A stretch of DNA of 63,999 nucleotides, counting the filler, from Dimargaris cristalligena (Eukaryota), in assembly GCA_003614675.1 (NCBI GenBank). It is 9 parts of 9 records of this genome, joined end to end, with 100 filler letters (N's around TTAATTAATTAA, not from the genome) between each part and the next. Parts side by side here need not be neighbours in the genome. Positions count along the whole stretch, not along the records: positions 36,604 to 43,782 come from ML003444.1; 8 more parts are not named here. The stretch is one strand, 5' to 3'. Numbering within the stretch: the first letter of the stretch is position 1; each line of letters begins with the position of its first letter. Of this stretch, positions 5,484 to 58,997 are shown one piece after another. Position numbers and translations under genes: made by a program. The notes beneath the pieces are model-generated. The model was not told the DNA's origin. It made no database searches and saw nothing but the letters and a program-made list of their open reading frames with translations.

Positions 5484-7247
5484 CTACAGAAACTGACGGA
5501 TGAAACACCGCCGGTGTTGCATAATAGTACCCGTAAAGTCCTCCGTCTCGATAGTAGCCTTGCTGGGTCGGAGCAAAATGGTGGCCATCAGCAGGGACAG
5601 CTTTTCTTTGGCAATCTCGGTATCCATCGCATGGAGGGTGACCTCCTTAATAAACGACACCAGGAACACAAATACATTTAAATTGGCCCGCGGTAGTGAG
5701 TCGAGCACCTGGAATACAATGGCATTCTCTACCGTGTCATTGCCCAGATGGTCAACCGGCGGGCCGTTGGGGTAGGCCGTTGTATCGTAACCCGAGGCGG
5801 TCCCTCGGGCGTCGGCCTCCAATAGCACTCGGCCCCCGGCCTCGACGCAGCGCTCAAAGTAACCAAAGGGGATGATCGGTTCCGGGAGGTACTTAAGCAG
5901 GCGGACCAGCGTGTCGGCTACGGAGTAGATGCCGCTGAATCGATCGTCGTCTTCGTCCTCCTCGGCCCCGTTGCCGGGGCGGGCGGTGGCCTCTTCCTGG
6001 TCTTCGGAGGGCTTCCCGGCCGGTGGCAATAGTAGTGCCATGTCGAACTCGTCGCCGGTATCTAAGCAGTTCCTAATGTAATTGACCAGCGACTGTTTGC
6101 CATCAATGAAAAACAAATTGGGCACGGATAATCCATAGCGGTCCAGGAAGTCAATCAGCCGCCAGATCTCTTTGGGAACGCTGTATTGGGCCTCTTCCCC
6201 AAGGGCCTGGACCTCTTCCAGGGTCATACGACGAATGGGTTTAGGCAGCCGGGCTAGCACGTCGAGGCTCGTCCCAAAACAAGTCGGCAGGTAATTGCCT
6301 TGTATACTAATAAAGTAATCCTTGCCGTTTTCGAGGTGCAGGATCAGAATATCCCGAAGTTCCTCCTGGCTCGTGTTTAGAGTGGGGGCACTGATGTTGG
6401 TGACCACAATGTCGAAGTGGATGGTAATTTGACAACCTAGGCATTCAGAGGTTCAAGGTTAGGCAAATACCGATAAAAAACGAAGTAAAAATAAGATTTT
6501 ATCTTAGCTCAGGGAGTCGATTAGAGTGTATGCAGGTCGGTCAAGCGGTTGGATGCCTGGTTCCAACGACGAGTCCATAGTGTCTGTGGGGACAGCCCCC
6601 TCTTTCCTGGTCTTGTATACACGTATGCAACAAAATAAAAGTTGTAAATTACCTGGCAGCACCGTTCCAGTAGGGGGATTAACGTACAACCACGGTCGAC
6701 AAAACTCGGTATCATCGAGTTTGGGAATAAACCGGAACTGAGCGGGTACCCGCCCGGTATTCGTGAGGGTCACCGAGCGACTGACCGATTTCTCGTACTC
6801 CACGGGGCCAAAATCGAGCTGGGTATCGGATATCCGGGCGGTGGGCAAACAGTCGTTTTCAAACTTATCCAACTCGCGGAGTAGCTGGGAGTAGATGGCG
6901 GCCTGCTCATCCCGCCGAATGGTTTTAATTCGGAGGCGGAACAGGCTGCTGACGGGCTTGTGGTCGCTCAATGCGAGCTCCATATGACTTTGGTAGTTCG
7001 TGGGATTAATGAAATCGGACCCGTAGGGGGTCCACCACAGGATGCGATCGCACCAGGCCGGGATACGCTTAGGGTCGTACTCATGGGTGCCAATCTCAAA
7101 TTTATAGGTCGGTGCGAAACGGATTGGGCGCTCCTGGAAGCCGGTAAAGGCCTTGAGGTTCATCTTTTGGATGTTGAGTTGGTCGAAATCCAAAAGGTAC
7201 TTAAATTCTTTGTTATCGAGTAGTGTGCGGATCTTGGCCTCGGAAAG
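5484..7247 (-). CDS. OCRL: OCRL/INPP5B-type inositol polyphosphate 5-phosphatase with ASH and RhoGAP-like domains. 5' end truncated by the contig end; intron 6437-6652
   Basis: 5-phosphatase motifs FAPTYKF, RIPAWCDRILW and SDHKPV. ASH region (LTNTGRVPAQFRF, DILILHLENGKDYFI). RhoGAP-like SVPKEIWRL...LPEPIIP. Confidence 0.92.
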
Positions 7248-7347
7248 NNNNNNNNNNNNNNNNNNNNNNNNNNNNNNNNNNNNNNNNNNNNTTAATTAAT
7301 TAANNNNNNNNNNNNNNNNNNNNNNNNNNNNNNNNNNNNNNNNNNNN
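7248..7347. other. Artificial contig linker; identical linkers at 14593-14692, 21931-22030, 29221-29320, 36504-36603, 43783-43882, 51060-51159 and 58334-58433
   Basis: 44 N + TTAATTAATTAA (stops in all six frames) + 44 N. The segments fall steadily in length: 7247, 7245, 7238, 7190, 7183, 7179, 7177, 7174. Confidence 0.99.
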
Positions 7348-7623: not shown

Positions 7624-10194
7624 TCCAGTTTTGGGATTTTCTAACATTGCCTATTTTATACTTCCCACTCATTATAGGAATTGTCAGGGTCAGCTATTGC
7701 TCATGCATCACTTGAGTGGGGCATTTAGTTTATCAGTTTACGTGAAGGGATTGGTTTGGGGGCATTTGTCTTGGTTCATGGTTATGGTAGTCTATAGGTC
7801 TCACTCTTATATATCCCCTGTTGGCCTATCTCGATTTTCTAGTATATTATATTTTGGCAAAACCATTGGTATTACGTAACTTCAGATTACCAATAAAGTG
7901 GACATTCTGGTAGGAAAAGGTGCTGCCCATATGCCATCCCTTACTCCAAAGGAACCTGGCTGAGCATCATTTTGCCACCTAACCCAGCCAAAGGAGGCAC
8001 TTAAATATATTGAATTATTATGGGAATGGCCTTTAAATGTAGGTATTGTTTTCGTATATATTTTCCAATGATTTTTACCTATTAAAGACACCTCCTATTT
8101 ATCTTAAATACATGCACTACGCTTGTAATACAATTACCTTTCACTACACCAAATATTTACAGTCCCAAAATTTAAACTAACTGAAATACACATATTTTTC
8201 TCCAAATCATTCATATTTAGATTTTCTCAATAGACTGCGTACCAGGCCATATTACGCTGCCAAATGTGTAATGAAGCTACTGAAAGGGCCAGACACAATA
8301 TTGTGGGAGCCCCCAACTCTGCTGAAATCTTAGGTTTATAATAGATGCTCATCTCCAGACAATTTCATAGGGATTATATTAATGGCTCATCGTCCAGTTT
8401 CCAATATACTCAGACGCCTTTAACTTGAACCATTTTTGATTTTCTTCCGATTTACTCTCTCTATTCCTTGCATCACTTAAAAATATATTCTCCCAGGTGT
8501 CCCACTTTAACACAATCTCGTTAGTTTGGCTGAACTGCGGTCTCCAATTAGTTACTAGTGCCCGGTATTATATGACTAGCCGCAGTGTCCATTTGATTAA
8601 CTTCTCACAGATTATGCACCAACTAACTGGAAGGAATCCAGTGGTGCTGGAATCGATTGATAAGCCACATTAAACCGCCATATATTTTCTGGTTTTATAT
8701 CTTGGATACGCTTTGTAAGGTGCACTTGGAAAGTACCCTCATAACACCATGGCAAGCGGTGTTTCTAGTAATATTCGGTCGGCGCCGCCGCCCATAGCGC
8801 CTCTTCCTCCACCAAACTAGCCCGGGAAAATTCTCAGGAACACAAAACCAGCCATCGGGAATAGCTGTGAAACTACTCAGTTTATCGATAGTCTCGGAGA
8901 AGCGATGGGCGGGAACGAAGGCTTAGACCTACTAAGCACCCTCTCCACGAACATTCGAATACATACAATTGACCTTATTTCTATCCTGGACCCTAAAATG
9001 GGAGTAGTGGTTGCGTGTAAATATATAGAATAGTGTGACGAACCCCATATTGGATGGTTGTAGAGCTCACCACTACGTTTCACGAAAAATAACATTTTGT
9101 TGAAGAGCTCATTGTATCATCGAGTTTAGGAGTGTCTTTAGAAAGATGTCTTGACGGCAGCCTGGCTTGACTGGGCTGTGGTGTGATAAAAACCACTAGC
9201 GGTGCATTATCTGCTGATAAAGGATTGGCTTAGGGGATAGCTTCAAGAACCTGGTATTATGTTAATGTGGTAAAAAGTGGCACTGATTAGTGCCCCGTAG
9301 GAGGGCATATGGCCGAAATGGACCGCATGGGTTTAGGCAGCCACGAAGAGATGCTGGGTTAGTTTCTAGAAAGTGGCAAAAACTAGTGACCAACTAATTG
9401 CGGGCGTTGGTATAGCATATCCTAAAATAGTAAATAGGTCCCGTTACCAATTGTCATTTGGGTTTTTGAAAATCAAAGGGTGTATTTCCCGGTTTACTTA
9501 AAAATAAGCAGAGTGCAACGGTTAGTCCGAAATATTGCCGCTACATCCTTAGCGGTGGCATTGGTTGTACCATCCACCGGATCACTGCCACCAAGTGTAT
9601 CCGTCAACGCCTCCTTATCCCCCTAATTACCTAGTCCAATTATTACTGAAATATTTCCCGAAGTATCCCTTTGACTAATCAATTTGACCTGTATTTGTCC
9701 CCGCGAATCGTCATACCTCATCGACTTGGCTTATACAGCCTGGGCAGATACCTATGACATCAGCCCATATTAAACCCGTTTCCCTTGGGCATGAAGTGCT
9801 TCGCCACCAGCCCGGAGTATTCAAAAATGGGCGATTAACATGGGCTGGGTTTGAAGTCCTATGCTCTGTAAAATTTAGAATATGTAGGCCAAAAGGAATC
9901 ACCGCTATCCTCCAAAGTATGTCATGTTATGTATTTCACTTGGGTATAAAAGACACCACTGCGGCCTTCCTCCTATGGGCAAATACCAATACTATCCATT
10001 ATTTAACACGCCCTACTTTAACATATCGATGATCAAGACCCAGCACTTGCGTGAGTATACTTTTATAATTTTGTTTAGGTTATTATTTGGTTGAATTTAA
10101 CCAATCCCGTTTATCCACTATATATTTACCCTATAAATCTCTACTATTCAGTTCCCTTAACTGCACTAGTCAACTTTCTAGTTATCCAACCAGT

Positions 10195-12255
10195 ATGATT
10201 GGCCACCGCCGAATTACCGTTCTGGGTTTGTTGCTGCTCAAACTCAACATCGCCCAGGCCTTTTCCTTTGACGAGGACACGGGCCGCACCATCAGTTTTG
10301 GCCCCGAATTGGGATACCGCCACTACGACACCTCCGTGCAGGAATCCGGCATTTCGACCGATACCAACGATCCGCTCGAGATTGCCCGTGAATTTGTGCT
10401 CAACAAGTTCGGACTCCAATCCGAGGACTATGTGGTGCGTGACGTGTACCAAACTCAGGTTCCCCCAGTGCACCACGTCTACCTGCGCCAACGAATTAGC
10501 GGCCTGGAAGTAGCCAATGCCAACATGAACATTAACATTGATGGGGAAAACCGCATCATCTCATTTGGCTCGTCTTTTATATTCCCTCCCTCCGAGAATG
10601 AAAATGACGAGGAAGACGATGAAAATGACGAGGAAGACGATGAAAATGACGAAGAGCCCTCGGTTCCCCAACCCACCGAAGATGGGAAGGGAGAAGAGAA
10701 GTCCCCGGGCGAGTCCCAGACCCCGCCCACCAAGCGTCGTAACAGCGCCCCTGGTAGTCAAAGACCCCAACTCTACCGTCGTGAACCTGTTCTGGCCCCC
10801 ACGGATGCTGTCGTTCGTTTGGCCCAGTTTATGAGAACCCCGATTCAAAACCCCGACCAGATTGTGGAACTAATGTTCGAAAATCTGGATGGCGAGGGAC
10901 CGGCCATGGTGCTACAGGACGTGGATATATCCACCGACGGAGATGTCCCGGTGGGTATGAGTTTCATTGCTACTGATGGCGGGGAGTTGGTACAGACGTA
11001 CAGTATTGTTTTGCAGACGGACCAGGCTTGGGTCCATGCCTTTGTGGATACCCAGGGTGGTAATGTGGTGGCCCTCAATAGTTGGACCGCCCACGCCCAG
11101 TACCGCGTCTTTCCTCTGGGGGCCAATGACCCAGAGGCTGACCAGCGTCAGTTAGTAGATAGCCAAAGTCTCGCCCCCGGTTTCTCGGCCACCTGGCACA
11201 GCATGGCTAACGGTACCACCTTCACCGACACTCAAGGTAACAACGTCCACGCCCAGGCCGACCCAACCGGCCGTGGAGACTGGTTGAACCTCCCCCGGCC
11301 CCAGGGAAACAAAGACCTCCAGTTCGACTTTCCCTTGGATCTAACGCAGGCCCCCAGTGCTTACAGTGACGCCGCCATCACCAACCTGTTCTACTGGAAC
11401 AATATCATCCACGATATCTTTTATAGCTACGGCTTCAACGAAGTGGCTGGTAACTTTCAGACCAGTAATGGTGACAAGGGCGGTCGGGGCGGTGACGCCG
11501 TGGTCGCCAATGGTCAGAATGGCGCCGGGACCAACAATGCCGACTTTGCCACTCCCCCCGATGGCATCCGCCCCCGTATGCGTATGTACCTCTGGACAGT
11601 AACTAACCCTCAACGCGACGGGGACTTGGAGAGCGATATTATCATCCACGAGTACGGCCACGGTATTTCCAACCGACTTACCGGCGGCCCTGCCAATGCC
11701 AACTGTCTAGGCTGGGGCGAGTCCGGTGGTATGGGGGAAGGCTGGAGCGACTTCTTCTCCGTTGTTTTCCGCATGAAGGCCACCCACACCGCCAGCGATA
11801 ATATGCTCTTGGGCGAGTATGTCATGGCCGGCCGGGGTATTCGCCGCTACCCCTACTCGATCAATCAGGGAACGAATCCATTCAGTTATGCTTCCCTCAA
11901 TAGCATTAGTACTTATGATCCCCACACCATCGGCACCGTATGGGCCTCCATTCTGTACGAACTCTACTGGAATCTCCTGGAAACCCTTCCCTTCCAGCCG
12001 GACTTGTACTCAGCCTCGCCCAATCATGGCAACACCCTGGCCCTCTTGCTTGTGGTGACCGGGCTTAAACTACAGCCCTGTCGACCCACGTTCGTAACGG
12101 CTCGCAATGCCATTGTGCAGGCCGAGGAGCTGCTGACCCATGGTCAGAATAAATGTGCTGTGTGGCGGGCGTTCGCCAAGCGGGGGCTGGGCATTGATGC
12201 AGCTCGTAATGGTTCTCGCTATGTGGATGGCTTTGCCGTTCCTGAAGGCTGTTAG
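10195..12255 (+). CDS. Secreted fungalysin (peptidase M36) with FTP propeptide
   Basis: Hydrophobic N-terminus, FTP motif HHVYLRQRISGLEVAN, YGFNEVAGNFQ, zinc motif HEYGHG, third ligand GMGEGWSD and WRAFAKRGLG. First ATG at 10195; TATAAAA at about 9945. Confidence 0.97.
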   Translation: MIGHRRITVLGLLLLKLNIAQAFSFDEDTGRTISFGPELGYRHYDTSVQESGISTDTNDPLEIAREFVLNKFGLQSEDYVVRDVYQTQVPPVHHVYLRQRISGLEVANANMNINIDGENRIISFGSSFIFPPSENENDEEDDENDEEDDENDEEPSVPQPTEDGKGEEKSPGESQTPPTKRRNSAPGSQRPQLYRREPVLAPTDAVVRLAQFMRTPIQNPDQIVELMFENLDGEGPAMVLQDVDISTDGDVPVGMSFIATDGGELVQTYSIVLQTDQAWVHAFVDTQGGNVVALNSWTAHAQYRVFPLGANDPEADQRQLVDSQSLAPGFSATWHSMANGTTFTDTQGNNVHAQADPTGRGDWLNLPRPQGNKDLQFDFPLDLTQAPSAYSDAAITNLFYWNNIIHDIFYSYGFNEVAGNFQTSNGDKGGRGGDAVVANGQNGAGTNNADFATPPDGIRPRMRMYLWTVTNPQRDGDLESDIIIHEYGHGISNRLTGGPANANCLGWGESGGMGEGWSDFFSVVFRMKATHTASDNMLLGEYVMAGRGIRRYPYSINQGTNPFSYASLNSISTYDPHTIGTVWASILYELYWNLLETLPFQPDLYSASPNHGNTLALLLVVTGLKLQPCRPTFVTARNAIVQAEELLTHGQNKCAVWRAFAKRGLGIDAARNGSRYVDGFAVPEGC
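10600..10652 (+). repeat. 21-bp coding tandem repeat (ENDEEDD x2.5) in the fungalysin propeptide
   Basis: GAAAATGACGAGGAAGACGAT occurs twice plus a partial third copy. Confidence 0.9.
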
Positions 12256-36603: not shown

Positions 36604-36796
36604 GGGCTTCCATGGGAATTGGAAGGCACTAAGATCACCTACAAGTGATTAGTGCGAACTCCGGGAGGCCTGGCCGGTTAAGGGGATATCAATGATGTTC
36701 GGCCTTGTTAGGGCCGGGGGGTACAATATGGTGCTATACGGCCTGATATGATGGCAGTCATATCGGTTGGATTAGGACAGATTAGGAGGGGCGACA
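36604..36796 (-). mobile_element. 5' part of a family-A-related LTR that retains its CpGs
   Basis: Reverse complement starts TGTCGCCCCTCCTAATCTG and includes AGGCCGTATAGCACCATATT, matching the LTR starts at 29583 and 16956. Confidence 0.75.
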
Positions 36797-38681
36797 CACT
36801 GTGAATATATTTAGCTGACATTCATTCCACCACTCAGCCGGACTGCTTGCAAACCTCCTTTATATATATATATATATATGTATAGGAATGGTCACCACTA
36901 AGAGTTCCGGGTCATACATCCCCATAAAGATTGGCTAGTATGCTAAAGGGAGGGGCCGGTGGATAGATGGGGCAGCCGAAGCCCCTATTTGCCAAAGCCT
37001 CCCATGATTGCACACAAACACTCATTCACTATCTCAAGTCCAAATACTACGCAAAGTAAAAGAAACCTGGCCTTCCGACGAATAACTAGTTAATGGTTTT
37101 TAAAACCCGGGTGTATTTCCTACCACATTCTGTATACAAGTGCATGGTTGCATCTCTTACCAATAATGTGAGGAAAGGTCACATTTACCACTGGATACTC
37201 TGCCCGTAGGTGGAGCTAGTCCACTAGTTAGCCAATATAATGGCCGCACAAGTAATTTAACCCGCCGGTGCTTTTATTGAACTTAAACTGCAGTTCATAA
37301 TAGGGCATGTGTAGTAGTGGCTAGTCATAGGGAAGTTGCCTTCATAGTCAGTTGGGGAGGGGAGTGCCAGGGGACCGTGAAATAGATCATTCTCGTTACA
37401 ACTTAAACCACTAAAATTTGATTATCGGGGGTGATGCTCATCACTAATAAATACCGTCTTTACTTGACACTAATGCTTGCCACCTTATCCCACCACCAGT
37501 ATACACCGGCTGGATAGTGAGGAGGCCCAATTGAATAAAGCAGAACCAAGGGAGCCTTGTCAATAAAAATCGCCCACTATGGCCTCCCCCGGTGCATTGT
37601 GGTAATCCTTGAACGGTTTTCTCATTTACCGTTATTCCTTAACATGTCCCCTTTTTGCCCCCTTTCAATGGACATCGGGGTAGTCTTTTTGCATAAACGG
37701 ATTTTGTAAAAAAAAAAACACATATTATACGCTTTTTCCCTGTAGGAGGCTGGTATCGTGAACAACGCAGCTGATGTAGTAAAACATGCCTCTATTATTT
37801 GCGACAGAAAGTGTAGAGACCGTTTGTATGAATTTCAATAAAAATCTACAGTTATGTTTATCCAATGCCCCTTGCATTTCAACTAACAGTTACTAAAATG
37901 AGCCAGGATGCTCCCAAACATCTGGAGGCGACTATTCACAGTGGGGCGCTTGACTGGGATTGGTACGAGTGACAAGCCTTGCTATTTTATTAGATGCTGC
38001 CCGATTAAATGGGTTGGTATGTAGGCCGTGTTACCATTGGTAAACTGGGATAGCCGACCATTGCTGAGCAGAGAAATGGAGAAAGAATTATACATTACAT
38101 CCCTTATAAATTGTCGAGATTCATCACGGATATCTTTGTATCATGATAAAACAAACCAGCGACCCACTGCTTACTTCATTTTCGAGATATCAGATATACC
38201 CTCGAACAGGCTACTACTCATGCCCTTAGGACGTGATAAATGGCCCCCCATCTGTCAGGAAGAGCCACTTGCTGGTTGGTAGAGTGGGTACTTTGGCCAT
38301 ATAACCGACATCGTCGAGCGGTAAAGTGGGGGAACCCGCACACCCCCAACCACAGTGTCATATGTTTATTGATATTGGTGTACCTTTTGAAGCGCGTGAC
38401 TTAATCAGCCATATTGTATCCGCCAGACTATAATCCATTAGTGTGATGGACAAAACCGAATGCCAATATATGGAAAAGAAGAGCCCAACCTGTCTAATCA
38501 AGAATTAACCCTTTAATGGGAAGCCCGGCTCGACTGTAAAAAGTAAAATCGGTACACAGGGGGACTGGGCTTTTTCAGAAAATATGGAGGATCTCTCCAG
38601 CTAACCCCATTCGCGTACCAGCAAATGTTTGATAAGACGGGATTGGGTATCATATAAATTTAAGGGCTGGGTCGTTCTATT

Positions 38682-41600
38682 TTAGCGGGGGGCTTCGTAG
38701 GTCCGTGAGCAGGGATTGGATCCGCACAGATGATGCCACCAAGCCGTACTGCTATTCCCTTTAACCGGGCAAAGACAGAGCGGGCATATGACAGCCGGAA
38801 TGGGTTTCATAACTTCCTCGTGTAAATATGTTAAGTATACACCAAGTAATATAGTGCAGAAACGACCATTAGTATTATGTCTTTGCGCTTCTATCTAGTA
38901 AGCATCATGAGAAGCACCGTGGTTCGTTGGGAAAGGGCAAATCGGTTTAACATAAACAAGGCTAACAAGGCCGTTAAATCGCACATTTGTAAATTACCTG
39001 GGCACTCACGGACTGTTCGCTTCTTACTACTCGTCCAGTGGTCCTCGGTCACTACCAAGCGGCAACCGGGGCATCGAACAAGAAGATCGGCATGTCGGCA
39101 TTCCGTCTCGCAGTGCCGTTTTAAATGGGAAACCTCAATCGACTAGTCCACGTAAACAGGAATTCGGGTATTTAAAAGTTGGTGATGATTAGTGCTAAAC
39201 AGATACCATAGATGGGTTACGAGCTGAAATGAATAATGTGTATTGGGAAGATATAATACGACGCGGTTTATGACATTCCCCATGAACTGACAAACTAATA
39301 CCCTGAATAAGAGCATACTGAAGCATGTATAAGTTCCTGACCACAACCCAACCTTAAGTAGGTGGTATGTAAACCGACTGAACTTACTGTTTGGCAAGCG
39401 GGGCAACAGGTAAAATAGGGACATTCCCGTTGGAAATGCCGATCGAAAAAGGGGTCCGTTTGAAAGGAATCGATCCGTGTGCAGAACGGACATACCCGAT
39501 CCCTGGTTAGGATTGATATGCAAAATGACGAGCATTCGATAATAATTAGAACACAAAGGGAGGTGAGGGGTAGGCTTAAATGGAGATTATACTCATTAGC
39601 CAAGAATACAGCGACTGTGTATTTTATGGCGGCTTAGTGGTGAGTAATACGGTTGCCCGGATGTTATCAAAAAGCCACAGTGAGCAACATTTCCGGGTGG
39701 TACTTCAGAATCCCAGAAAAAATTAGTGACTTACACAGAATCTGGTTGATGGGGCGTCACATTGGCCTTATGAGGCAAGTTGGGGACTGTTGGTATACCG
39801 CATAGTTGAATGATCGATAGCATTGGCCACTCGAGTCATAGATTTAAAGAAATTAGTCCTGGACGATTTGCTATTTGGGGCAAATATCGATAAACCTAGA
39901 CATAATCGACTGGGTATCATAAAATGTACATAATTATATATATATATATAATTCCAACTATAAACATACCTGGTGGAGTTGATCGGGAGGATATGTGATT
40001 AGAAGTATACAGTAATTGCTGAACGGGCGGGGTGAGTGAATGTTGATGTGAGCGATCCATTCGTGAGCGACGTGGAGTTTTTTGTCTTGGGGCTTGTACA
40101 GTGGATATGAGGGGCGGGGTTTGGGCCGATACACGACATGGGGTAGCAGGAGTTATCCCTGTAGTATAGGTCGCCCCAGGCGAGTCGTAGTGTTTCGGCG
40201 GTGCCCAATTGACATGCCTAGTATCCACCGAACTACTCTGGCTCTGGTCCCGGGAATGGCCAATGATGGTTTTGTCAGGCGACAATGGCAACGACAGCGA
40301 CAGCAATGGCGACATCGATAATGGCGACGACCATTGGCCCTGGACCGATTGGACATACTGGCGAAATAAAGTCCGCACTATTATTGGGTTAATATGGACC
40401 AGGTATTCTTGTAAAATCTCCCAGGGGATCCAGTTCGAACATTGAACCACCAGGTCCACCGAGCGGTTACGAACTACGGTGTGTGGGTGGCCCAATAGGT
40501 ACCGGAAAAACCGCAGTAGGGGCCGGTCACCCGACTCCGAAATCAGCAGTTTGAGAACCGAACGTCGTCGTCGCTGGCGTAGTGGATGTCGTTGGGCATC
40601 GGGACGGTCTGTTAGCCAAGGAAGAAGGGTTCGTCGGACGAGCGATAGGTAAAGGGTGGCGATTTTGTGGGGCGCAGGCGGCTGGTCCAGAATCGTTTTC
40701 AGAACCTCCTGAAGTATGACCGGGCTATCCACTTGAAGGTAAGTACTAGCCAAGCGGGACAAAATAGCCGCCCCATCCAATGAGTTGGAGGGTTCGGATG
40801 GATTCAAGTGAGATTTCGGATGTTTTGCTGGGCTATTGTCCGCGGTGGAGGCGCATGCGTAGTGGGGTAGGTGGCGGAGTAGGAGAGACACGTATCCCAC
40901 CCATACCATCACCAGATCCAACATGCGTGCCTCCGAGACCAGGGTATAATTGACAAGGTTATAGAGGATAGACAGGGTGATTCGGCTTAGACGAGCGCGA
41001 CGGTCAGGGAAGAAATGGGCCGCCAGGAGAGTCATCAGTTTATCCAAGAACTCCGTGTCGTTGAAATCAGGTGATAGTCCTATATCGGCGAAACGGAACC
41101 TGTTATGCCGACTCTGGGGGTTTGAATTGCAGTGATGTTCAACGGCCTCCAAAAGGGTCTGTGCGGCTTCCACCTTGGCGCCAAACGATAAGGGCCGGGC
41201 CAACTGATCGGATGGGTTGGTGGATGAATTCGCGGCGCGAATAACGGAACTGGGAATGGTGATGCTGACGGAATCTGGTATTTTCAAGGGGTGTGGTGGG
41301 TTTACTACCGGGGTTGCCATTTTTTTTTGTTTGACCTGGGGCGGAGACCGCGGTCTTTCCTCAGGCTCCAAACCTGCCAAAATATCGTCTATGGAAGCAT
41401 GGGAGGGAGTGGGGGAGTGGGCAAACGAGCGCCAAGTTGGCAGAGACGACATGGCAAATGATACACCATCTGGGTCCTCGTAGGCCAACCGAGTCGCGTT
41501 GGATAGTTGCGGTGACGCAGGTGGCGGTGAAGTCGATGGAGGCTCTAAATCGGAATGAGTCACAGTTTTCGGGAAACCGCCGGCTATCAAATCACCGCCG

Positions 41601-42413
41601 GCCTGGGGCGAGGCCGGAAAATCCGACCATGGATGCGGCGCAATCATAGTCCCGGCGGGCGATTCCTTCGTCTCCCAGACTGGGTCGGGTGCTAGAGTAC
41701 TTGTAAGGGAAGCGAACGATTCATCCGGGCCTAGGAAATCGATACCAACCAGAGTTACCTGTTGGTAGGTGTTGTGTGGGTTGGTGTAACAGCCAGGGAT
41801 GGAAAGCGTGATGGAATCGGCCCACGTATCTAGGGCGACGGTCTTTCGCTGCATTTTGCTGAACGCATGGACACGGGGGTCCTGAAAAGTTATCAGTCCA
41901 ACGTCGGATGTATAGTAGCTCTCGGGACCCGGGGTCTCCGTCGATGCAATCGATGTCGAGGCATCGGGGGACGCGTGGGGCAGCCGAAGAAAGGTAGTAA
42001 CACACACGACCTGCGGCGTGCGGCTGGCGTGGACGGTGATTCGGAGACGGGAGATATAACGGGTACCGTCAGCAAACTTGATGTTGTAGAGCACCGGGTA
42101 ACGGCACCGTCTGGTGATAAGGGTCCAAAATATCCAAAAGCAAATGCACCAGCAGTCGATGGGCGAAAGAATGAGCGAGGGTAGAAAACGTGTGGGCCTG
42201 GTATCAGTTCGGTTCGTTTTACCGCCATAGGTGCCCTGGCAGGTTGTATTGTAATGAAGTACACTCCCCAGTAGACCTGGTACAGTATTCAACTGGCACT
42301 CTGGGGGACTTTGGTGAGGGTCGCTCATGCTCAAGCTACTTCGACTACCAGTACCTATTAGACGTCCACAAATAACCCCCCAACTGCGGAGTGGGGGTTC
42401 GATGGGACCGCAT
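38682..42413 (-). CDS. CEP104: CEP104/FAP256-like protein (N-terminal jelly-roll, helical/TOG-like region, C2HC zinc-finger array). Exons about 42413-42355, 42110-39970, uncertain exon(s) 39900-39600, 39502-39388, 39142-38998, 38812-38682; 5' end uncertain
   Basis: Spliced N-terminus WTSNRRCRYP...ISRLRITVH...QRKTV...NPHNTYQQVTLVGIDFLG matches the CEP104 N-domain signature. C-terminal CPFC..DRHFQRECPYFTCCPAC, LKRHCETEC..RCPGC and CPLC..AWWHHL..C match its zinc-finger array. Confidence 0.82.
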
Positions 42414-43732
42414 GGCCAGCGTAGCTTCGCTATACTTTTAGCGGCCAGTAATGGGCGTTTGTAAGTGGAAATGGAAATTTGAAGTTAGAAGAGAGTTTAG
42501 GCATATGGGCTGGGTAAAACAGAAAACCAAACAACAGTGGGGAATTACAGTATGCTTGGGTTGGTTTTTGGATGCAATAGTTGTCTTCCGTAGGACCAAC
42601 CACTTCGCCGCAAAAAGGGGCGCCAGTCGTCTAGGTACAGTTCATTGGCCAATTCTCAAGATAAGTAAACAAGCTGTGTGTGTGATTGCACTCGGCGCAA
42701 CCAGTTCTTTTAATATATCACCAGATAAATAATTGAAATGGCTTTACTTGTGATTAGCTGGATCCAGTATATTCTACTATAGTATGGTTCAGTTAAATGG
42801 CCGTTGGATAAATCTACGAGAGGTGGTGAATTGCGCCAGATTGCTAGAGTGGGCCACCAGACTAAACGACGGGTGGATTGACTAGCCCTACGCGGTGATC
42901 CCAAGGGGCCCAGTACCTGGCGACATGTCTTTTCCTGAGAAATAGGATGATGGGCTAATGCAAATAGTATGAACCTGGGTATCTTCTTCATCAATAGCAG
43001 TGGATGATGGGCCCCTTGAGTATATATCCAGAAGGGGACTGAAATGCCGGAGGTGGTTCTTCACATACCCTCACTTGTATTTACCCCAATCTGGCCTCAC
43101 GAGGGTGCAATGCCAAACAGTTGCCAGGGGTTTTGTTCTTCTTTTGCTGTTCATTTCTACATTGTCTAACCGCAAAGCTCTTTAATTAGCTAGGCAGTTC
43201 CCATTAGAAGGCACAGTCGTGTCCCACAGTAATTGGTGACGAGGGCCTATTAACGCGACTGTGCTTTTTAATGGGAACCCATGTCTCCTTAATAAAGGAA
43301 TCACCAAGGAGACCCGTAGTTCAAATATGACCATGAGGTTTGAAAATGCTACCACTTGGCCAGAATGGTGCTTCACGGGGCCAATGGCCGGCGTCCAGCA
43401 TCACCTGATACATTAGCCAGTCCGCCTGTGTATTAAAGTCAGTGCGGTCTTTGTTGAAGCCAATCCCTCCTCTCCCCAGCATGTATTAAGAAGGATTGCC
43501 GGGTTGGGGGAGTTGTATACGCATTAGCTAGTTCGGCTGGGGTTCTACATCCCCCTCCCTAGTCCAGTGGGCGGAGTTATATAACCACCCGGGTTTCCCG
43601 CCATCCGGCCTCTTCGTCTTTCACCTGTTTCCCCCTATTTTACTTCCGGTATTCCTTTACCACCCCTTTACCCCCGTTTTAATCTTCGTCGGTTGTTCCC
43701 CATAACTCGAACACCTTCTCTCGTTAGTCAAC

Positions 43733-43782
43733 ATGCGTGAATGTATCTCGGTCCACGTTGGTCAGGCCGGTGTCCAGATTGG
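43733..43782 (+). CDS. Alpha-tubulin, first 16-17 codons (truncated by the contig end)
   Basis: Encodes MRECISVHVGQAGVQIG. TATATAA at about 43579 and a pyrimidine-rich leader. Confidence 0.93.
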
Positions 43783-43882: not shown

Positions 43883-45297
43883 TTGTTTGAAATACAAACT
43901 TCACAATTAAAATAATCAGAAAGAGAATTTTGGTCAACATTTATGATGCCATTTTTAGCAGCCTGCTTGAGGGTATCGAAATTAATATGGCCAAGAGAAT
44001 AATGGACCTCCAAAAGGGAAGGAGGTTTAGGAATTTCAATAGCTAAATTTGCCATTGAAGTATGAGGATATTTAACTGAAAAAGGGTATGAAGAGTGTAT
44101 TTTGTTGACTTGGAGAAGGGGAGTATTCCCCTCTTGAATGGTACAATGGCCTTGATGGAAGGTGAATTTAATTCCCCTCTCATCACTGGCTGGTACAGAA
44201 AGTAGATTATAACCCAAAGTGGGGCAGTGGCCCACATTATATAGGGTTAATCAGCGAGTATTATTGGATGGATCTAGGATGTCAAGCTTGACTGTCCCAT
44301 AACCCAAGATTGATAACTCTTTTCCATCTGCCAATATTAATTGGCGAGTTTCTTGTACATAATTATCAAATAAAGTATGATCAGGGCAATAGTGGTAGGA
44401 TGCACCCGAGTCAATAAACCAAGTTGACTTCGGATATTTGCCATCCTTCACTTTGAGTGCATGTTCAGGAATTTTAACTACTAGCTGGGCTTGTTCAGCC
44501 TGGCTTTCCTTTTTCCCTTTATGCAGGGGGTTTCGAAAACATTCATCAGTGGAGTGTCCACTAGTTTTATGAATAGCACAGTATGAGGTATCACCCTCTT
44601 TTTGTGTGTTTTTAACCCCCTTACTCTTACCCTTCTTACCTTTAAACTTGCCCGGGTTAGTTTTTACAGTCATGGCAGACTCGAACATTGTTTTTGGTGT
44701 CGCCTCCCGATTGGCCAGGAATTGTTCTGCCTCGATAAATGATTGAACTACACTGTCGAAAACAAAAGAGTCCAGGTCCCGGGTATGCTATTGGCTGACT
44801 GTCAGGTGGAATCTTTCATCCACTGCCTGTAGGAACAAGAGAGTCAGTCTCTGGTCACCCGTAAGGTCATACTTCTTGAGTTCCGCGTCGAGAGATTGAA
44901 TCTTCATGGCCAGTTGACGGATGGATTGATTCCCCTGATGGATTCGATACAACTCAGAGTATAGAGTTAGGACCTTGGCTGTAGGTGGTTTGGCAAAGCG
45001 ATTCACCATTGTCTTCCAGATTTCCTTGGCCGTTAGTTCGCCATCGAGGGAGTCCACGTACTGGTCATTCATGGATGCACGGAGCACAAATGAAGCCATT
45101 CGATCATCCTTCAGGTACTGCTTGTTTAAGGCTTTCCCTTTAGGGTCGTCAGTGGTGGTTGGTTTGTAACCATCTTCTACAATCTCCCAAAGATCGGATG
45201 ATTGCAGGTATAGGCGCATAGATAGGGCCCAAGCAGTATAGTTATCACTATCAAACTGACGGGGTTGGATGTTAAGTTTAGAAAGTTTAGAACTCAT
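43883..45297 (-). pseudogene. Ty1/Copia gag-protease-preintegrase frame with two in-frame stops, truncated by the contig start
   Basis: NYTAWALSMRLYLQSSDLW gag start, zinc knuckle CAIHKTSGHSTDEC, protease WFIDSGAS, NLLSV, and HYSLGH...CEVC. Stops TAG at 44788-44790 and TGA at 44251-44253 without frameshift. Confidence 0.93.
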
Positions 45298-45477
45298 TGT
45301 AAGAGTAGGTTGTAAGGTAGATTGATACTTGAAAGGGATGGATGTATGAATGGATGGATGGTTAGATAAATGAATTTCAAAATGAAATGTAGATAGATGA
45401 GTATCCAGTATGGTAGATGGATAGTAAATGAATATTGTGATTGAGGTATAAACGATTAGTTTATTTGAAACACACCA

Positions 45478-45489
45478 GGGCTCATAACC
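45478..45489 (-). promoter_or_regulatory. Copia primer-binding site GGTTATGAGCCC
   Basis: Directly 3' of the 5' LTR; resembles the GGTTATGGGCCC internal initiator tRNA-Met PBS of copia-type elements. Confidence 0.8.
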
Positions 45490-45749
45490 TATTGGAAATA
45501 TAAGTTTGATGGTAAATGCAAGTGCCTTCAGATATAACTAAAACAATTCAAAGAAGAGAGAAAGAACCGCAAGGGGCAAAGCTAGATGCCCATGGTTGGT
45601 TTTATTGAATTGGATAATAGCAGTAATAACGATTAGGACGAAGTTCCAGTTATAGGATGATGTAGTAACAGCTATAGTAAAGTCCCAAGTATAGGATGAG
45701 CCAATCACAGAGATGGAATCAGTGGGACGGGGGAAATGAATTTCCAACA
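45490..45749 (-). mobile_element. Copia 5' LTR (family B, 260 bp)
   Basis: TGTTGGAAAT...TTCCAATA on the minus strand, followed by the PBS and gag. Confidence 0.9.
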
Positions 45750-56516: not shown

Positions 56517-58333
56517 ATGGTAAGTGTATCTATCGTCGAGTACCCTGCTTCTGGTGCGTCCTATTGCCTCGAATGCTGGGTACTTATCACTTTAACCACC
56601 GAGAGGTCGAATTGTCTTTCCGTTCACCATCGTCCTGGGGTGCTTGCTGTTTAATGTTTGCCCCTGTCTGGTCTTGAAAACTGGAGCTACCAAACCAACA
56701 TACATAGTAGGACATAGGGCTATCTGATTACTTGGTTCCATTGTTGCTCTTTTCATTCAAGTGACCGCCCAAAGCCACACTATACTCATTTTTCATAGTC
56801 ACCCCTCAGGCTAAGCATATTGAGTAAACAATTAATTCAAAAAACAAACAAATAATAACTAGCATCGTGTCTTTCTAATACCCTCCTATTTGATACCCCC
56901 TGCAACATCCCTACAGACAATGGTTGGCCCTGATTTAAAGACGGAACAAGTACTCTGGACGGAGCCGATACAGCTTCCCTACTCCCTCCAAGAAAATAAC
57001 CCGCTTCTACCAACCGCTAGTCTACCTATGGCTATGGATATCACTGACTCGTGTTCCTTACCTTTAGTTTCCTCCTCCCCGGCCGCGTCTCCAGCACCGA
57101 CCTTAGTCGCGAACCCAGTGGCCACTGTCGTTGATTATGTGTCCCCTACGAAGCCTCCTGAACACACCCCAGCGGCTACCGAAGCTGCCTCGGAGGAAGA
57201 AGAAGAGCTATATGAGGTCGAGAGTATTGTCAACCATCGGAGGGTGCGTGGGACCGTCGAATACCTTATTAAGTGGAAAGGGTACACCGAGGAGTGGAAT
57301 ACCTGGGAGCCTCGCAATAACCTGAACTGCACGGCTTTGGTCCGCCAGTACTATCGGTCCTTGAACAAGGCCTCAGCCCCGGCCAAGCCAACTTTTAAGA
57401 GTACTCTAGATAGGTTTTTGGCAAGCAACCCCACACCTACAACGACATATAGCCCATCGCTTCTAGCCTCAACACCCGTTACTCACCCGGAGCCAGTCCC
57501 GGTCCAACCTTCGGCCCCAACCCCAAAAGCCCAACCACCCGTGGTAGCCGACCCTTCCTGGCTACCTCTTAAACAGGAAATCCCCCAGAACCCCACAGCT
57601 GGGATTAGAAAGACCGCGGCCTCGACCAAGCGGGGCCAGCGCCTCCGTCGGGGGCTTCACTCCGAATCCATCGACGTGGTCCGGATGAAGCCCAACATTA
57701 GGCGGTTCCTGGATGCCGTCTCCCACGCCAAGGGGCCACCCATTTCCGTGGTTAACGAAGTGGACGACGACGGCCCACCACTGACGTTCACCTATATTGA
57801 CAAGTCCATCATCGGACCGACTATTACGCCCCCCGACCCAGGTACGGCCCTGGGATGCCAATGTCCCCATAACTGTGATGGCCTTTCGTCTACCCATGAC
57901 TGCCTGTGCACTTTCCACACGGATAGGCAATGTGCCTATGATTTGAATGGCCGACTCACTCTGGCCCCCGGGTTCCCCATCTACGAATGTAATTCCAAAT
58001 GCCGGTGCGGGCCTCGGTGTCCCAACAGGGTGATTCAAAAGGGGCCCCAAGTCAAGGTGGAAATCTTCAAGACCGTCAATAAAGGCTGGGGCGTACGGGC
58101 CCGCCAGGCCATCCCCAAGGGCACCTTTATCGCGGAATACGTTGGCGAAATCATTAATGCGGCGGAAGCTGATCGCCGGGCAGAGGTGTACGATGGCATC
58201 GGCATTACCTATCTTTTCGACCTGGACCACGAAGTCCCCGCCGAGCAGTCCCCTGAATACACCATTGATGCCTACCATTGCGGTAACTTTTCGCACTTCT
58301 TTAACCATTCGTGCGACCCTAACCTGGCCGTGT
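56517..58333 (+). CDS. clr4: Clr4/SUV39H histone H3K9 methyltransferase (chromodomain, pre-SET, SET), 3' truncated. Probable ATG-only first coding exon 56517-56519, main exon from 56917
   Basis: Chromodomain YEVESIVNHR...YLIKWKGY...NTWEP. Pre-SET cysteine cluster ECNSKCRC...CPNRVIQ. SET motifs KGWGV, YVGEII, YLFDLD and FFNHSCDPN. Confidence 0.95.
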
Positions 58334-58997
58334 NNNNNNNNNNNNNNNNNNNNNNNNNNNNNNNNNNNNNNNNNNNNTTAATTAATTAANNNNNNNNNNN
58401 NNNNNNNNNNNNNNNNNNNNNNNNNNNNNNNNNTCAATTGGAACTTTCATCCAAATCGTTATATAGCTTGATTGAACTTCTCCCATATTGATGGTAACGT
58501 TAACCAGATTCAATGGTATATATCTTAGGCATTTTTATCACGTGACCATTCTTCCCAGCCTTCTGCATCTAAAATAGCCTATTGCGGATGTAGGAGTTGG
58601 TCCAGGTATATTTTATCCAGTGGTAAGTCAGTCGCACAAAATGCCTGCTTGGTTAGGGAAAAAAAATATCGAGAAAATTGGTTGATGAACCAGTAGTAAT
58701 GATTGAAGCTCAGCGTTTGTAAAAAAAAGCCGTTACTTCGGTTATGTTCAACTATTGTACAGGTGGAATTTGTCCAGCTACGTTAGCTTTTCTTTCGAGT
58801 CATTCAGTGGGCCCTTTGCCAGTTATTCGACCGCAACTTTGCTGCCGTTCCTGTTCCTTTAGGAGTATCCTTGTTAACCCATTCTACTCGCCCCCCGTAT
58901 AGCTCACTGGTGGTGTACACGTCCATTCCCGATTTAAGTTACGAGGCCGATCTCCGAACCTAGTTGCCTTTTCCCTTTATTTTACTCATTATTCACC

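Follow-up and report, generated by a model that had tools for sequence, protein, structure and literature searches.

CEP104, known as FAP256 in Chlamydomonas and Tetrahymena, is among the genes most tightly tied to having cilia. In the extracts of the cited papers on which this background draws, phylogenetic profiling found CEP104, together with CABLES1, to be universally conserved in ciliated species (PMC10425847), and in animals and algae the protein is placed at the distal ends of centrioles and at ciliary tips (PMC10425847, PMC6406257). The same type of extract describes human CEP104, in a reconstituted system, as a modular protein: the jelly roll has CSPP1 and CCDC66 as partners, tubulin is bound by the TOG domain, with a few CEP104 dimers blocking plus-end growth, the zinc fingers bind TOGARAM1, Nek1 or CP110, and an SxIP motif binds EB proteins (PMC12170345, PMC5222566). 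In addition, coiled coils lie between the domains of the human protein (PMC5222566). Here we describe a CEP104-like gene of the fungus Dimargaris cristalligena, a multi-exon gene at positions 42413-38682 of the minus strand of the window, by which we mean the whole stretch of DNA analysed (63,999 nucleotides (nt) in nine joined record parts). The gene lies within the part at 36,604-43,782, which comes from ML003444.1, and carries the three globular modules of CEP104 in their canonical order.

The assignment of the window to D. cristalligena is supported by the product of the largest exon (exon 2), which matches a hypothetical protein from the same species (P0001) at 100% identity. By taxonomic lineage the fungus belongs to the order Dimargaritales, subphylum Kickxellomycotina; in the literature, as far as the available extracts go, it is put among the flagellum-less terrestrial fungi, in a clade whose flagellum is described as lost, and the Dimargaritales are described as haustorial mycoparasites (PMC6899921). 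These data agree with an earlier description of the locus made from the DNA alone (hereafter the sequence-only reading), which had named a CEP104 homologue with the order jelly-roll, TOG, zinc finger in an apparently non-flagellated fungus. Its accompanying remark that Dikarya lack centrioles does not directly apply, the host being a fungus of zygomycete grade that stands outside Dikarya. All together, we think it likely that the gene is a true, extremely divergent orthologue of CEP104/FAP256 that descends from a flagellated fungal ancestor and was kept in Dimargaritales after the flagellum was lost.

Folded modules and linkers

The N-terminal module is recognised by its sequence. Specifically, the Pfam family CEP104_N (PF21038) matches residues 2-127 of the exon-2 product with an E value of 6.5e-10 and 39.6 bits, against a cut-off of 27.5. 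An AlphaFold2 (AF2) model of this domain is all-beta, with a predicted local distance difference test score (pLDDT) of 62.6, and its top match among 48,161 chains of the PDB is IFT25 (2yc2_A; Z 9.0, root-mean-square deviation (rmsd) 2.5, 91 residues aligned), followed by a second IFT25 chain (8ruy_R), the human protein 1xpw, CBM32 modules and the N domain of XRCC1 (Z 7.0). Extracts of PMC5222566 report that the N domain of human CEP104 likewise retrieves IFT25 and XRCC1, together with APC10. With a profile match above its cut-off and a matching structure, the Dimargaris protein has the CEP104-type jelly-roll N domain of the CEP104/FAP256 proteins.

At the other end of the gene, the CEP104-specific finger profile CEP104_ZnF (PF21039) matches two consecutive exons: its positions 1-35 match exon 4 (E 1.7e-4, 22.2 bits) and its positions 38-77 match exon 5 (E 6.1e-5, 23.6 bits). 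The two matches are collinear and in the right order, and they stand directly downstream of the CEP104_N exon on the same strand. Among PDB sequences, exon 4 finds a single match, to the zinc-finger structure 5lpi of human Cep104, a weak one (E 1.4) that runs over 37 residues without a gap; in this alignment every Cys and His is in register and finger 1 is ungapped. In the spliced model, the candidate zinc ligands are C755/C758/H773/C778 and C784/C787/H799/C804 for fingers 1 and 2, which are regularly spaced, and C813/C816/H824/C836 and C847/C850/H864 or H865/C872 for fingers 3 and 4. Subject to the predicted splicing, these exons would therefore encode a four-finger C2HC array of the CEP104 kind. 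Other matches of the finger exons are weak: exon 5 gave, by phmmer against the PDB, eS27 zinc-ribbons only (E 0.2 or worse), and exon 6 gave ADNP_N as its only Pfam match (E 0.11).

The central module is recognised by its predicted fold. The AF2 model of the 298-residue central region contains 13 helices (pLDDT 69, predicted template modelling score 0.68). When it was compared by structure with the same 48,161 PDB chains, TOG domains filled ranks 1 to 10 and 15 of the 20 top places; the best was Stu2 TOG2 (4u3j_C, Z 15.3), and CLASP2 (14.7), Alp14 (14.6), XMAP215 TOG4 (13.7) and Crescerin (13.4) were also among the high scores. The TOG of human Cep104 (5lph_A) stood at rank 12, with Z 13.1, rmsd 4.8 and 225 of 260 residues aligned. 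A re-examined Foldseek list gave a comparable picture, 18 of its 20 top entries being TOG domains, and a profile search of the PDB with the TOG alignment returned weak matches only, to PP2A-A and to Stu2/Alp14 (E 0.18-0.27). The TOG call rests on TOG domains outranking many other HEAT/ARM proteins and on the coverage of the full domain. By this modelling, the central region folds as a single TOG domain.

The two linkers that separate the modules are of a different composition. Linker 1, taken here as model residues 151-320, a script bin that approximates its coordinates, contains 17% Pro and 15% Ser; over both linkers the values are 15-17% Pro and 15-16% Ser, and the longest runs free of Pro are 13 residues in the first and 25 in the second. 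Since the linkers are so rich in Pro and Ser, coiled coils are unlikely, and the linkers are probably disordered. The two coiled coils of CEP104/FAP256 are accordingly missing on the evidence of composition, no coiled-coil predictor having been run. Linker 1 is also poorly conserved, and gapped, in comparison with a protein of Tieghemiomyces parasiticus, a fungus of the same taxonomic family (see below). A pattern search of the spliced model found no SxIP motif after the fingers, and the looser pattern [ST]x[IL]P only as SSLP at residue 241 and TLLP at residue 514, the latter inside the TOG region. According to extracts of PMC5222566, the SxIP motif is absent from fly CEP104 too.

Gene model and public annotation

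An 855-codon stop-to-stop frame (39917-42484, minus strand) dominates the region, and our analysis shows a minus-strand gene of five or six exons with predicted junctions (Table 1). All the splice junctions are predicted from the sequence. The large exon is open over 2.1 kb, and the spliced model that includes the bridging exon encodes 880 residues with a single stop, at its end. Base composition and codon usage follow the model: exons have a guanine-cytosine (GC) content of 0.51-0.56 versus 0.33-0.41 for introns 2-5, and the codon score is +0.19 to +0.53 in the folded-domain parts of exon 2 and -0.41 to -1.0 in introns 2-5.

Table 1. Predicted features of the CEP104-like gene, with positions counted along the window.
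Feature	Position	Strand	Basis or remark
Proposed exon 1	42355..42413	-	ATG, 19 codons and 2 nt; direct reading
Proposed intron 1	42111..42354	-	244 nt, GT...AG
Exon 2, part 1: CEP104_N jelly-roll	41705..42110	-	Pfam PF21038
Exon 2, part 2: Pro/Ser-rich linker 1	41216..41704	-	Composition
Exon 2, part 3: TOG-like HEAT-repeat domain, 298 aa	40322..41215	-	Structure comparison of the model
Exon 2, part 4: Ser/Pro/Thr-rich linker 2	39970..40321	-	Open frame; may be intronic if donor 40358 is used
Inferred bridging exon 3, 52 nt	39735..39786	-	Phases 1 in, 2 out; CAG acceptor, GTAAGT donor
Exon 4: zinc finger 1 and first half of finger 2	39388..39502	-	CEP104_ZnF profile
Exon 5: second half of finger 2 and finger 3	38998..39142	-	CEP104_ZnF profile
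Exon 6: finger 4 and stop	38682..38812	-	CPLC...HH...C pattern; TAA at 38684-38682

At the 5' end, the junction that joins the ATG exon to the large exon across intron 1 reads as the sequence-only reading had quoted it, and the large exon does hold the quoted NPHNTYQQVTLVGIDFLG. The donor of exon 1 is GTACTG. Intron 1 is unlike the other introns in that it has a GC content of 0.50, stays open in the frame of exon 2 and is partly read through by the public model P0001; its codon score in that frame (-0.06 to -0.09) falls between those of the domains and those of introns 2-5, near that of linker 2. By codon score, the coding status of intron 1 is ambiguous. The CEP104_N match, however, lies at the very start of exon 2 and begins at profile position 6-8, so that 5-7 profile positions are left upstream, which favours the splicing of intron 1. 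The residues that precede the Pfam match on its N-terminal side would come from the proposed exon 1.

The join between the large exon and the fingers needs one element more than had been foreseen. The sequence-only reading had three small downstream exons rebuild the finger array; the Cys/His patterns and the terminal TAA bear this out, but the three exons are insufficient. Specifically, the GTATGT donor 39969 leaves the large exon in phase 1, but the first finger exon begins in phase 2, and this mismatch rules out a direct join of the two from this donor. Two routes would restore the frame. In the first, the 52-nt exon 3 bridges the gap; it is inferred from the fit of phases and splice sites, and its GTAAGT is the sole donor that scored 6/6 in the scan. 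In the second, a strong phase-2 GTATGT donor at 40358, at the end of the TOG region, opens an 856-nt intron and drops the Ser/Pro-rich tail. The frame of linker 2 is open up to the donor at 39969, with a weak codon score (-0.24 to -0.03), and the residues just past donor 40358 are conserved in the Tieghemiomyces protein. As a separate observation, donor 40358 could also yield a shorter isoform in which the TOG is joined straight to the zinc fingers.

If the last exon begins at the AAG acceptor at 38813, 10 residues separate the final Cys of finger 3 from the opening Cys of finger 4, compared with 11 in 5lpi (C92, C104). An alternative acceptor at 38891 is less likely: it adds 26 residues between the two fingers, and the spacing in 5lpi fits the shorter form.

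Two public D. cristalligena models cover the locus (39917-43181, minus strand), and neither includes exon 1 or any of the finger exons. The start of P0001 falls within the proposed intron 1, and its end is a 5-residue tail. P0002, which comes from another assembly of the species, matches the first 401 residues of exon 2, then shifts frame, and has additional upstream exons with no homology. Both public models are wrong at both ends, and because of this, surveys of the proteome by domain would miss the zinc fingers.

Relatives and competing explanations

The relatives that can be reached by sequence are few. A phmmer search of 1.84e9 representative proteins gave three matches, namely P0001, P0002 and P0003, the latter a hypothetical protein of Tieghemiomyces parasiticus, which belongs to the same taxonomic family as Dimargaris (E 1.9e-6, 27% identity). 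Word-indexed searches returned the D. cristalligena models only and, with P0003 as query, P0003 itself only; P0003 has no Pfam match of its own. Compared directly with the window protein by BLASTP, P0003 aligns over the N domain (E 1e-9) and over the TOG/helical C-terminal region (E 3e-11), in the same order. The conservation is concentrated in these two folded domains and the linker is gapped, a pattern that indicates selection on the domains and argues against a dead gene, while the presence of a homologue in a second genus at 27% identity implies that the gene is old in the order and fast-evolving. The same phmmer search found no homologue in Coemansia or other Kickxellales, the query being too divergent for this absence to mean much; for the same reason, in view of a query too divergent even for canonical CEP104, we do not claim from the missing zygomycete matches that retention is specific to Dimargaritales. 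A metagenome scan with the two-sequence alignment gave 245 pattern matches, none of which was confirmed. Features in the ESM Atlas point toward CEP104 clusters, as a lead only.

A number of observations weigh against the identification of this gene as CEP104, and they are best considered together. Among the 1.84e9 proteins, phmmer reached no canonical CEP104. The AF2 models were built on two-sequence alignments and have pLDDT values of 63-69; moreover, helical repeats can score Z 13-14 without kinship. Foldseek gave nothing at E<=0.001 with the TOG model, the best entries being designed repeat proteins at E 0.011. By sequence, the central 298 residues match no Pfam family at E<=10, the whole exon has no CEP104_TOG match at E<=1, so that the CEP104-specific TOG signature is lacking, and phmmer of the large exon against the PDB gave no match at E<=10. 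Tubulin-contact residues listed for the human CEP104 TOG in extracts of PMC5222566 are W448, V493 and R626; the Tieghemiomyces protein has a Trp in its first HEAT loop (after the first helix) that is not conserved in the Dimargaris protein. As to the fingers, both profile matches are individually under the cut-off of 27.4, exon 6 searched alone against Pfam has no CEP104_ZnF match, and finger 3 is odd, with a C-x2-C-x7-H-x11-C pattern that puts its His in an unusual position. Finally, exons 1 and 3 are predicted only, as is how far exon 2 extends, and whatever we say of function is inferred.

With these reservations, orthology with CEP104/FAP256 is still the explanation that we favour, and the most economical reading of the protein, three folded modules having been kept, is that of a scaffold that binds tubulin or microtubule ends. 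The gene would have been inherited from a flagellated fungal ancestor and retained in Dimargaritales after the loss of the flagellum. The protein may still bind tubulin or microtubule ends through its TOG, with the jelly-roll and finger modules serving as possible docking sites, and it could act on microtubules outside cilia, either at the spindle pole body or at the plus ends of spindle or cytoplasmic microtubules.

A more specific proposal, which goes back to the sequence-only reading, concerns the centriole. In this view, a degenerate, centriole-like ring of microtubules persists in the spindle pole body of Dimargaritales, and CEP104 would act there as a cap or regulator of the distal microtubule ends. 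In its favour, Coemansia reversa, of the same subphylum, is reported to have a spindle pole body with a cylindrical ring of nine microtubules, described in extracts of PMC6070874 as of unknown composition, and the position of animal and algal CEP104 at ciliary tips and at the distal ends of centrioles (PMC10425847, PMC6406257, in the passages cited above) suits such a role. Against it, the literature searched contained no ultrastructure for Dimargaris, and phmmer found no homologue in Coemansia or Kickxellales, a weak absence given the divergence of the query. By analogy, a link between the gene and a centriole-like spindle pole body is a reasonable suggestion; as an explanation of the gene, the remnant ring is doubtful. 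The stronger version, in which Dimargaritales would retain a centriole-derived ring like that of Coemansia and CEP104 would be a surviving component capping its ends without a cilium, we regard as unlikely. If true, it would be the first molecular entry point to the replacement of the centriole by the spindle pole body in fungi.

The sequence-only reading had spoken of a relic kept after the loss of the flagellum. That the gene was kept is in line with our data; that it decays is not, for the gene is intact and two genera share its conserved domains, which argues that a function is being maintained and not that a remnant is decaying. A leftover heading for loss, with no maintained function and with frames open by chance, would account for the extreme divergence that puts canonical CEP104 out of the reach of phmmer, for the lack of coiled coils and of an SxIP motif, for the irregular spacing of finger 3 and for the weak coding scores of both linkers. 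The large exon, however, is open over its whole 2.1 kb, the spliced model has a single, terminal stop, the similarity to Tieghemiomyces is concentrated in the folded domains with the linkers gapped, and no candidate zinc ligand is missing, the spacing in fingers 1 and 2 being regular. The chance that the gene is such a leftover is slim.

It might also be asked whether the jelly-roll/TOG frame and the finger exons belong to separate transcripts, as both public models stop before the fingers and the junction requires either a predicted 52-nt exon or an 856-nt intron. The stop-to-stop frame of exon 4, however, contains no Met, and that of exon 5 opens right after a TAG and reaches the fingers without passing a Met, which means that both exons must be internal; either route across the junction keeps the frame with GT-AG sites, and the finger profile that is matched is specific to CEP104 and lies directly downstream on the same strand. 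We consider two separate genes very improbable.

A foreign origin, as a contaminant or by horizontal transfer from a ciliated eukaryote, would fit the patchy distribution seen (two Dimargaritales genera only), yet it deserves hardly any credence, since the gene shows the exon/intron GC contrast of the whole window, has fungal genes (fungalysin, septin, Nrap, Clr4-like) around it in the 64-kb window of joined parts, and occurs in two D. cristalligena assemblies and, at 27% identity, in a second genus, which speaks for long residence. The preferred explanation is, therefore, again that of a divergent CEP104/FAP256 orthologue retained without a flagellum.

As to the surroundings of the gene, the window carries ordinary fungal genes elsewhere (fungalysin, septin, TatD, Nrap and a Clr4-like methyltransferase), which makes contamination as a source of the CEP104-like gene improbable. 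Its GC content is strongly bimodal, about 0.51-0.59 in coding islands and about 0.33-0.43 in non-coding DNA, a difference that separates exons from introns by eye. The fungalysin gene (10069-12255, plus strand) encodes an M36 metalloprotease with an FTP propeptide, and the methyltransferase gene (56863-58389, plus strand) a chromo/pre-SET/SET protein of the Clr4/SUV39 type; fungalysin counts of Dimargaritales are discussed in PMC9866270, in the part available. At 5484-7295 (minus strand), two adjacent open reading frames correspond to the end of an inositol polyphosphate 5-phosphatase and to an OCRL-like ASH plus RhoGAP region, an architecture of the OCRL/INPP5B type; the ASH part also weakly matches the Ig-like profiles of HYDIN/CFAP. 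Fragments of a Copia-type retrotransposon (gag and Pol beta-barrel) are found at 44251-45537 (minus strand), upstream of the CEP104-like gene and on the next joined part.

Significance and comparison with known systems

The bare homology is already known, UniRef having named P0002 after the CEP104 N domain through an automatic label. The new elements are the three-module architecture in full, a corrected model of the gene, the conservation across Dimargaritales and the odd host. The literature searched, in the extracts available, contained no report of CEP104 in a flagellum-less fungus, with the limit that the toolkit tables of PMC8371127 and PMC10406608 may hold rows for it. An intact three-module copy in an order without flagella is an exception that needs an explanation independent of the cilium, and it provides a natural test of CEP104 action on microtubules outside the cilium. 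In addition, the gene is a candidate marker for a centriole-like spindle-pole structure of the type described for Coemansia reversa in extracts of PMC6070874, a structure relevant to the change from centrioles to spindle pole bodies in fungi. The significance of the finding would rise sharply if Dimargaritales turned out to have a centriole-like structure or additional centriole genes.

In comparison with known systems, the closest is CEP104/FAP256 itself (human CEP104, and FAP256 of Chlamydomonas and Tetrahymena), which has the same order of a jelly roll, a single TOG and a C2HC array, as described in extracts of PMC5222566. The Dimargaris protein differs from it in its flagellum-less host, its Pro/Ser-rich linkers, the lack of a CEP104_TOG match and of an SxIP motif, its irregular finger 3 and a sequence so divergent that phmmer reaches no canonical member from it. 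The galactose-binding-like jelly rolls of IFT25, the XRCC1 N domain and APC10 resemble the model of the Dimargaris N domain, with IFT25 as the best match and CBM32 modules and XRCC1 (Z 7.0) behind it, but this is a likeness of fold only, the sequence profile that fits the Dimargaris domain being CEP104_N. Finally, the proteins of the XMAP215/Stu2/Alp14, CLASP and Crescerin/TOGARAM1 groups share with the central region a TOG-sized HEAT array, with scores that equal or exceed that of the Cep104 TOG. These proteins, however, have arrays of TOG domains and neither a jelly roll nor a C2HC array, whereas the Dimargaris protein has a predicted single TOG between flanking domains that are specific to CEP104.

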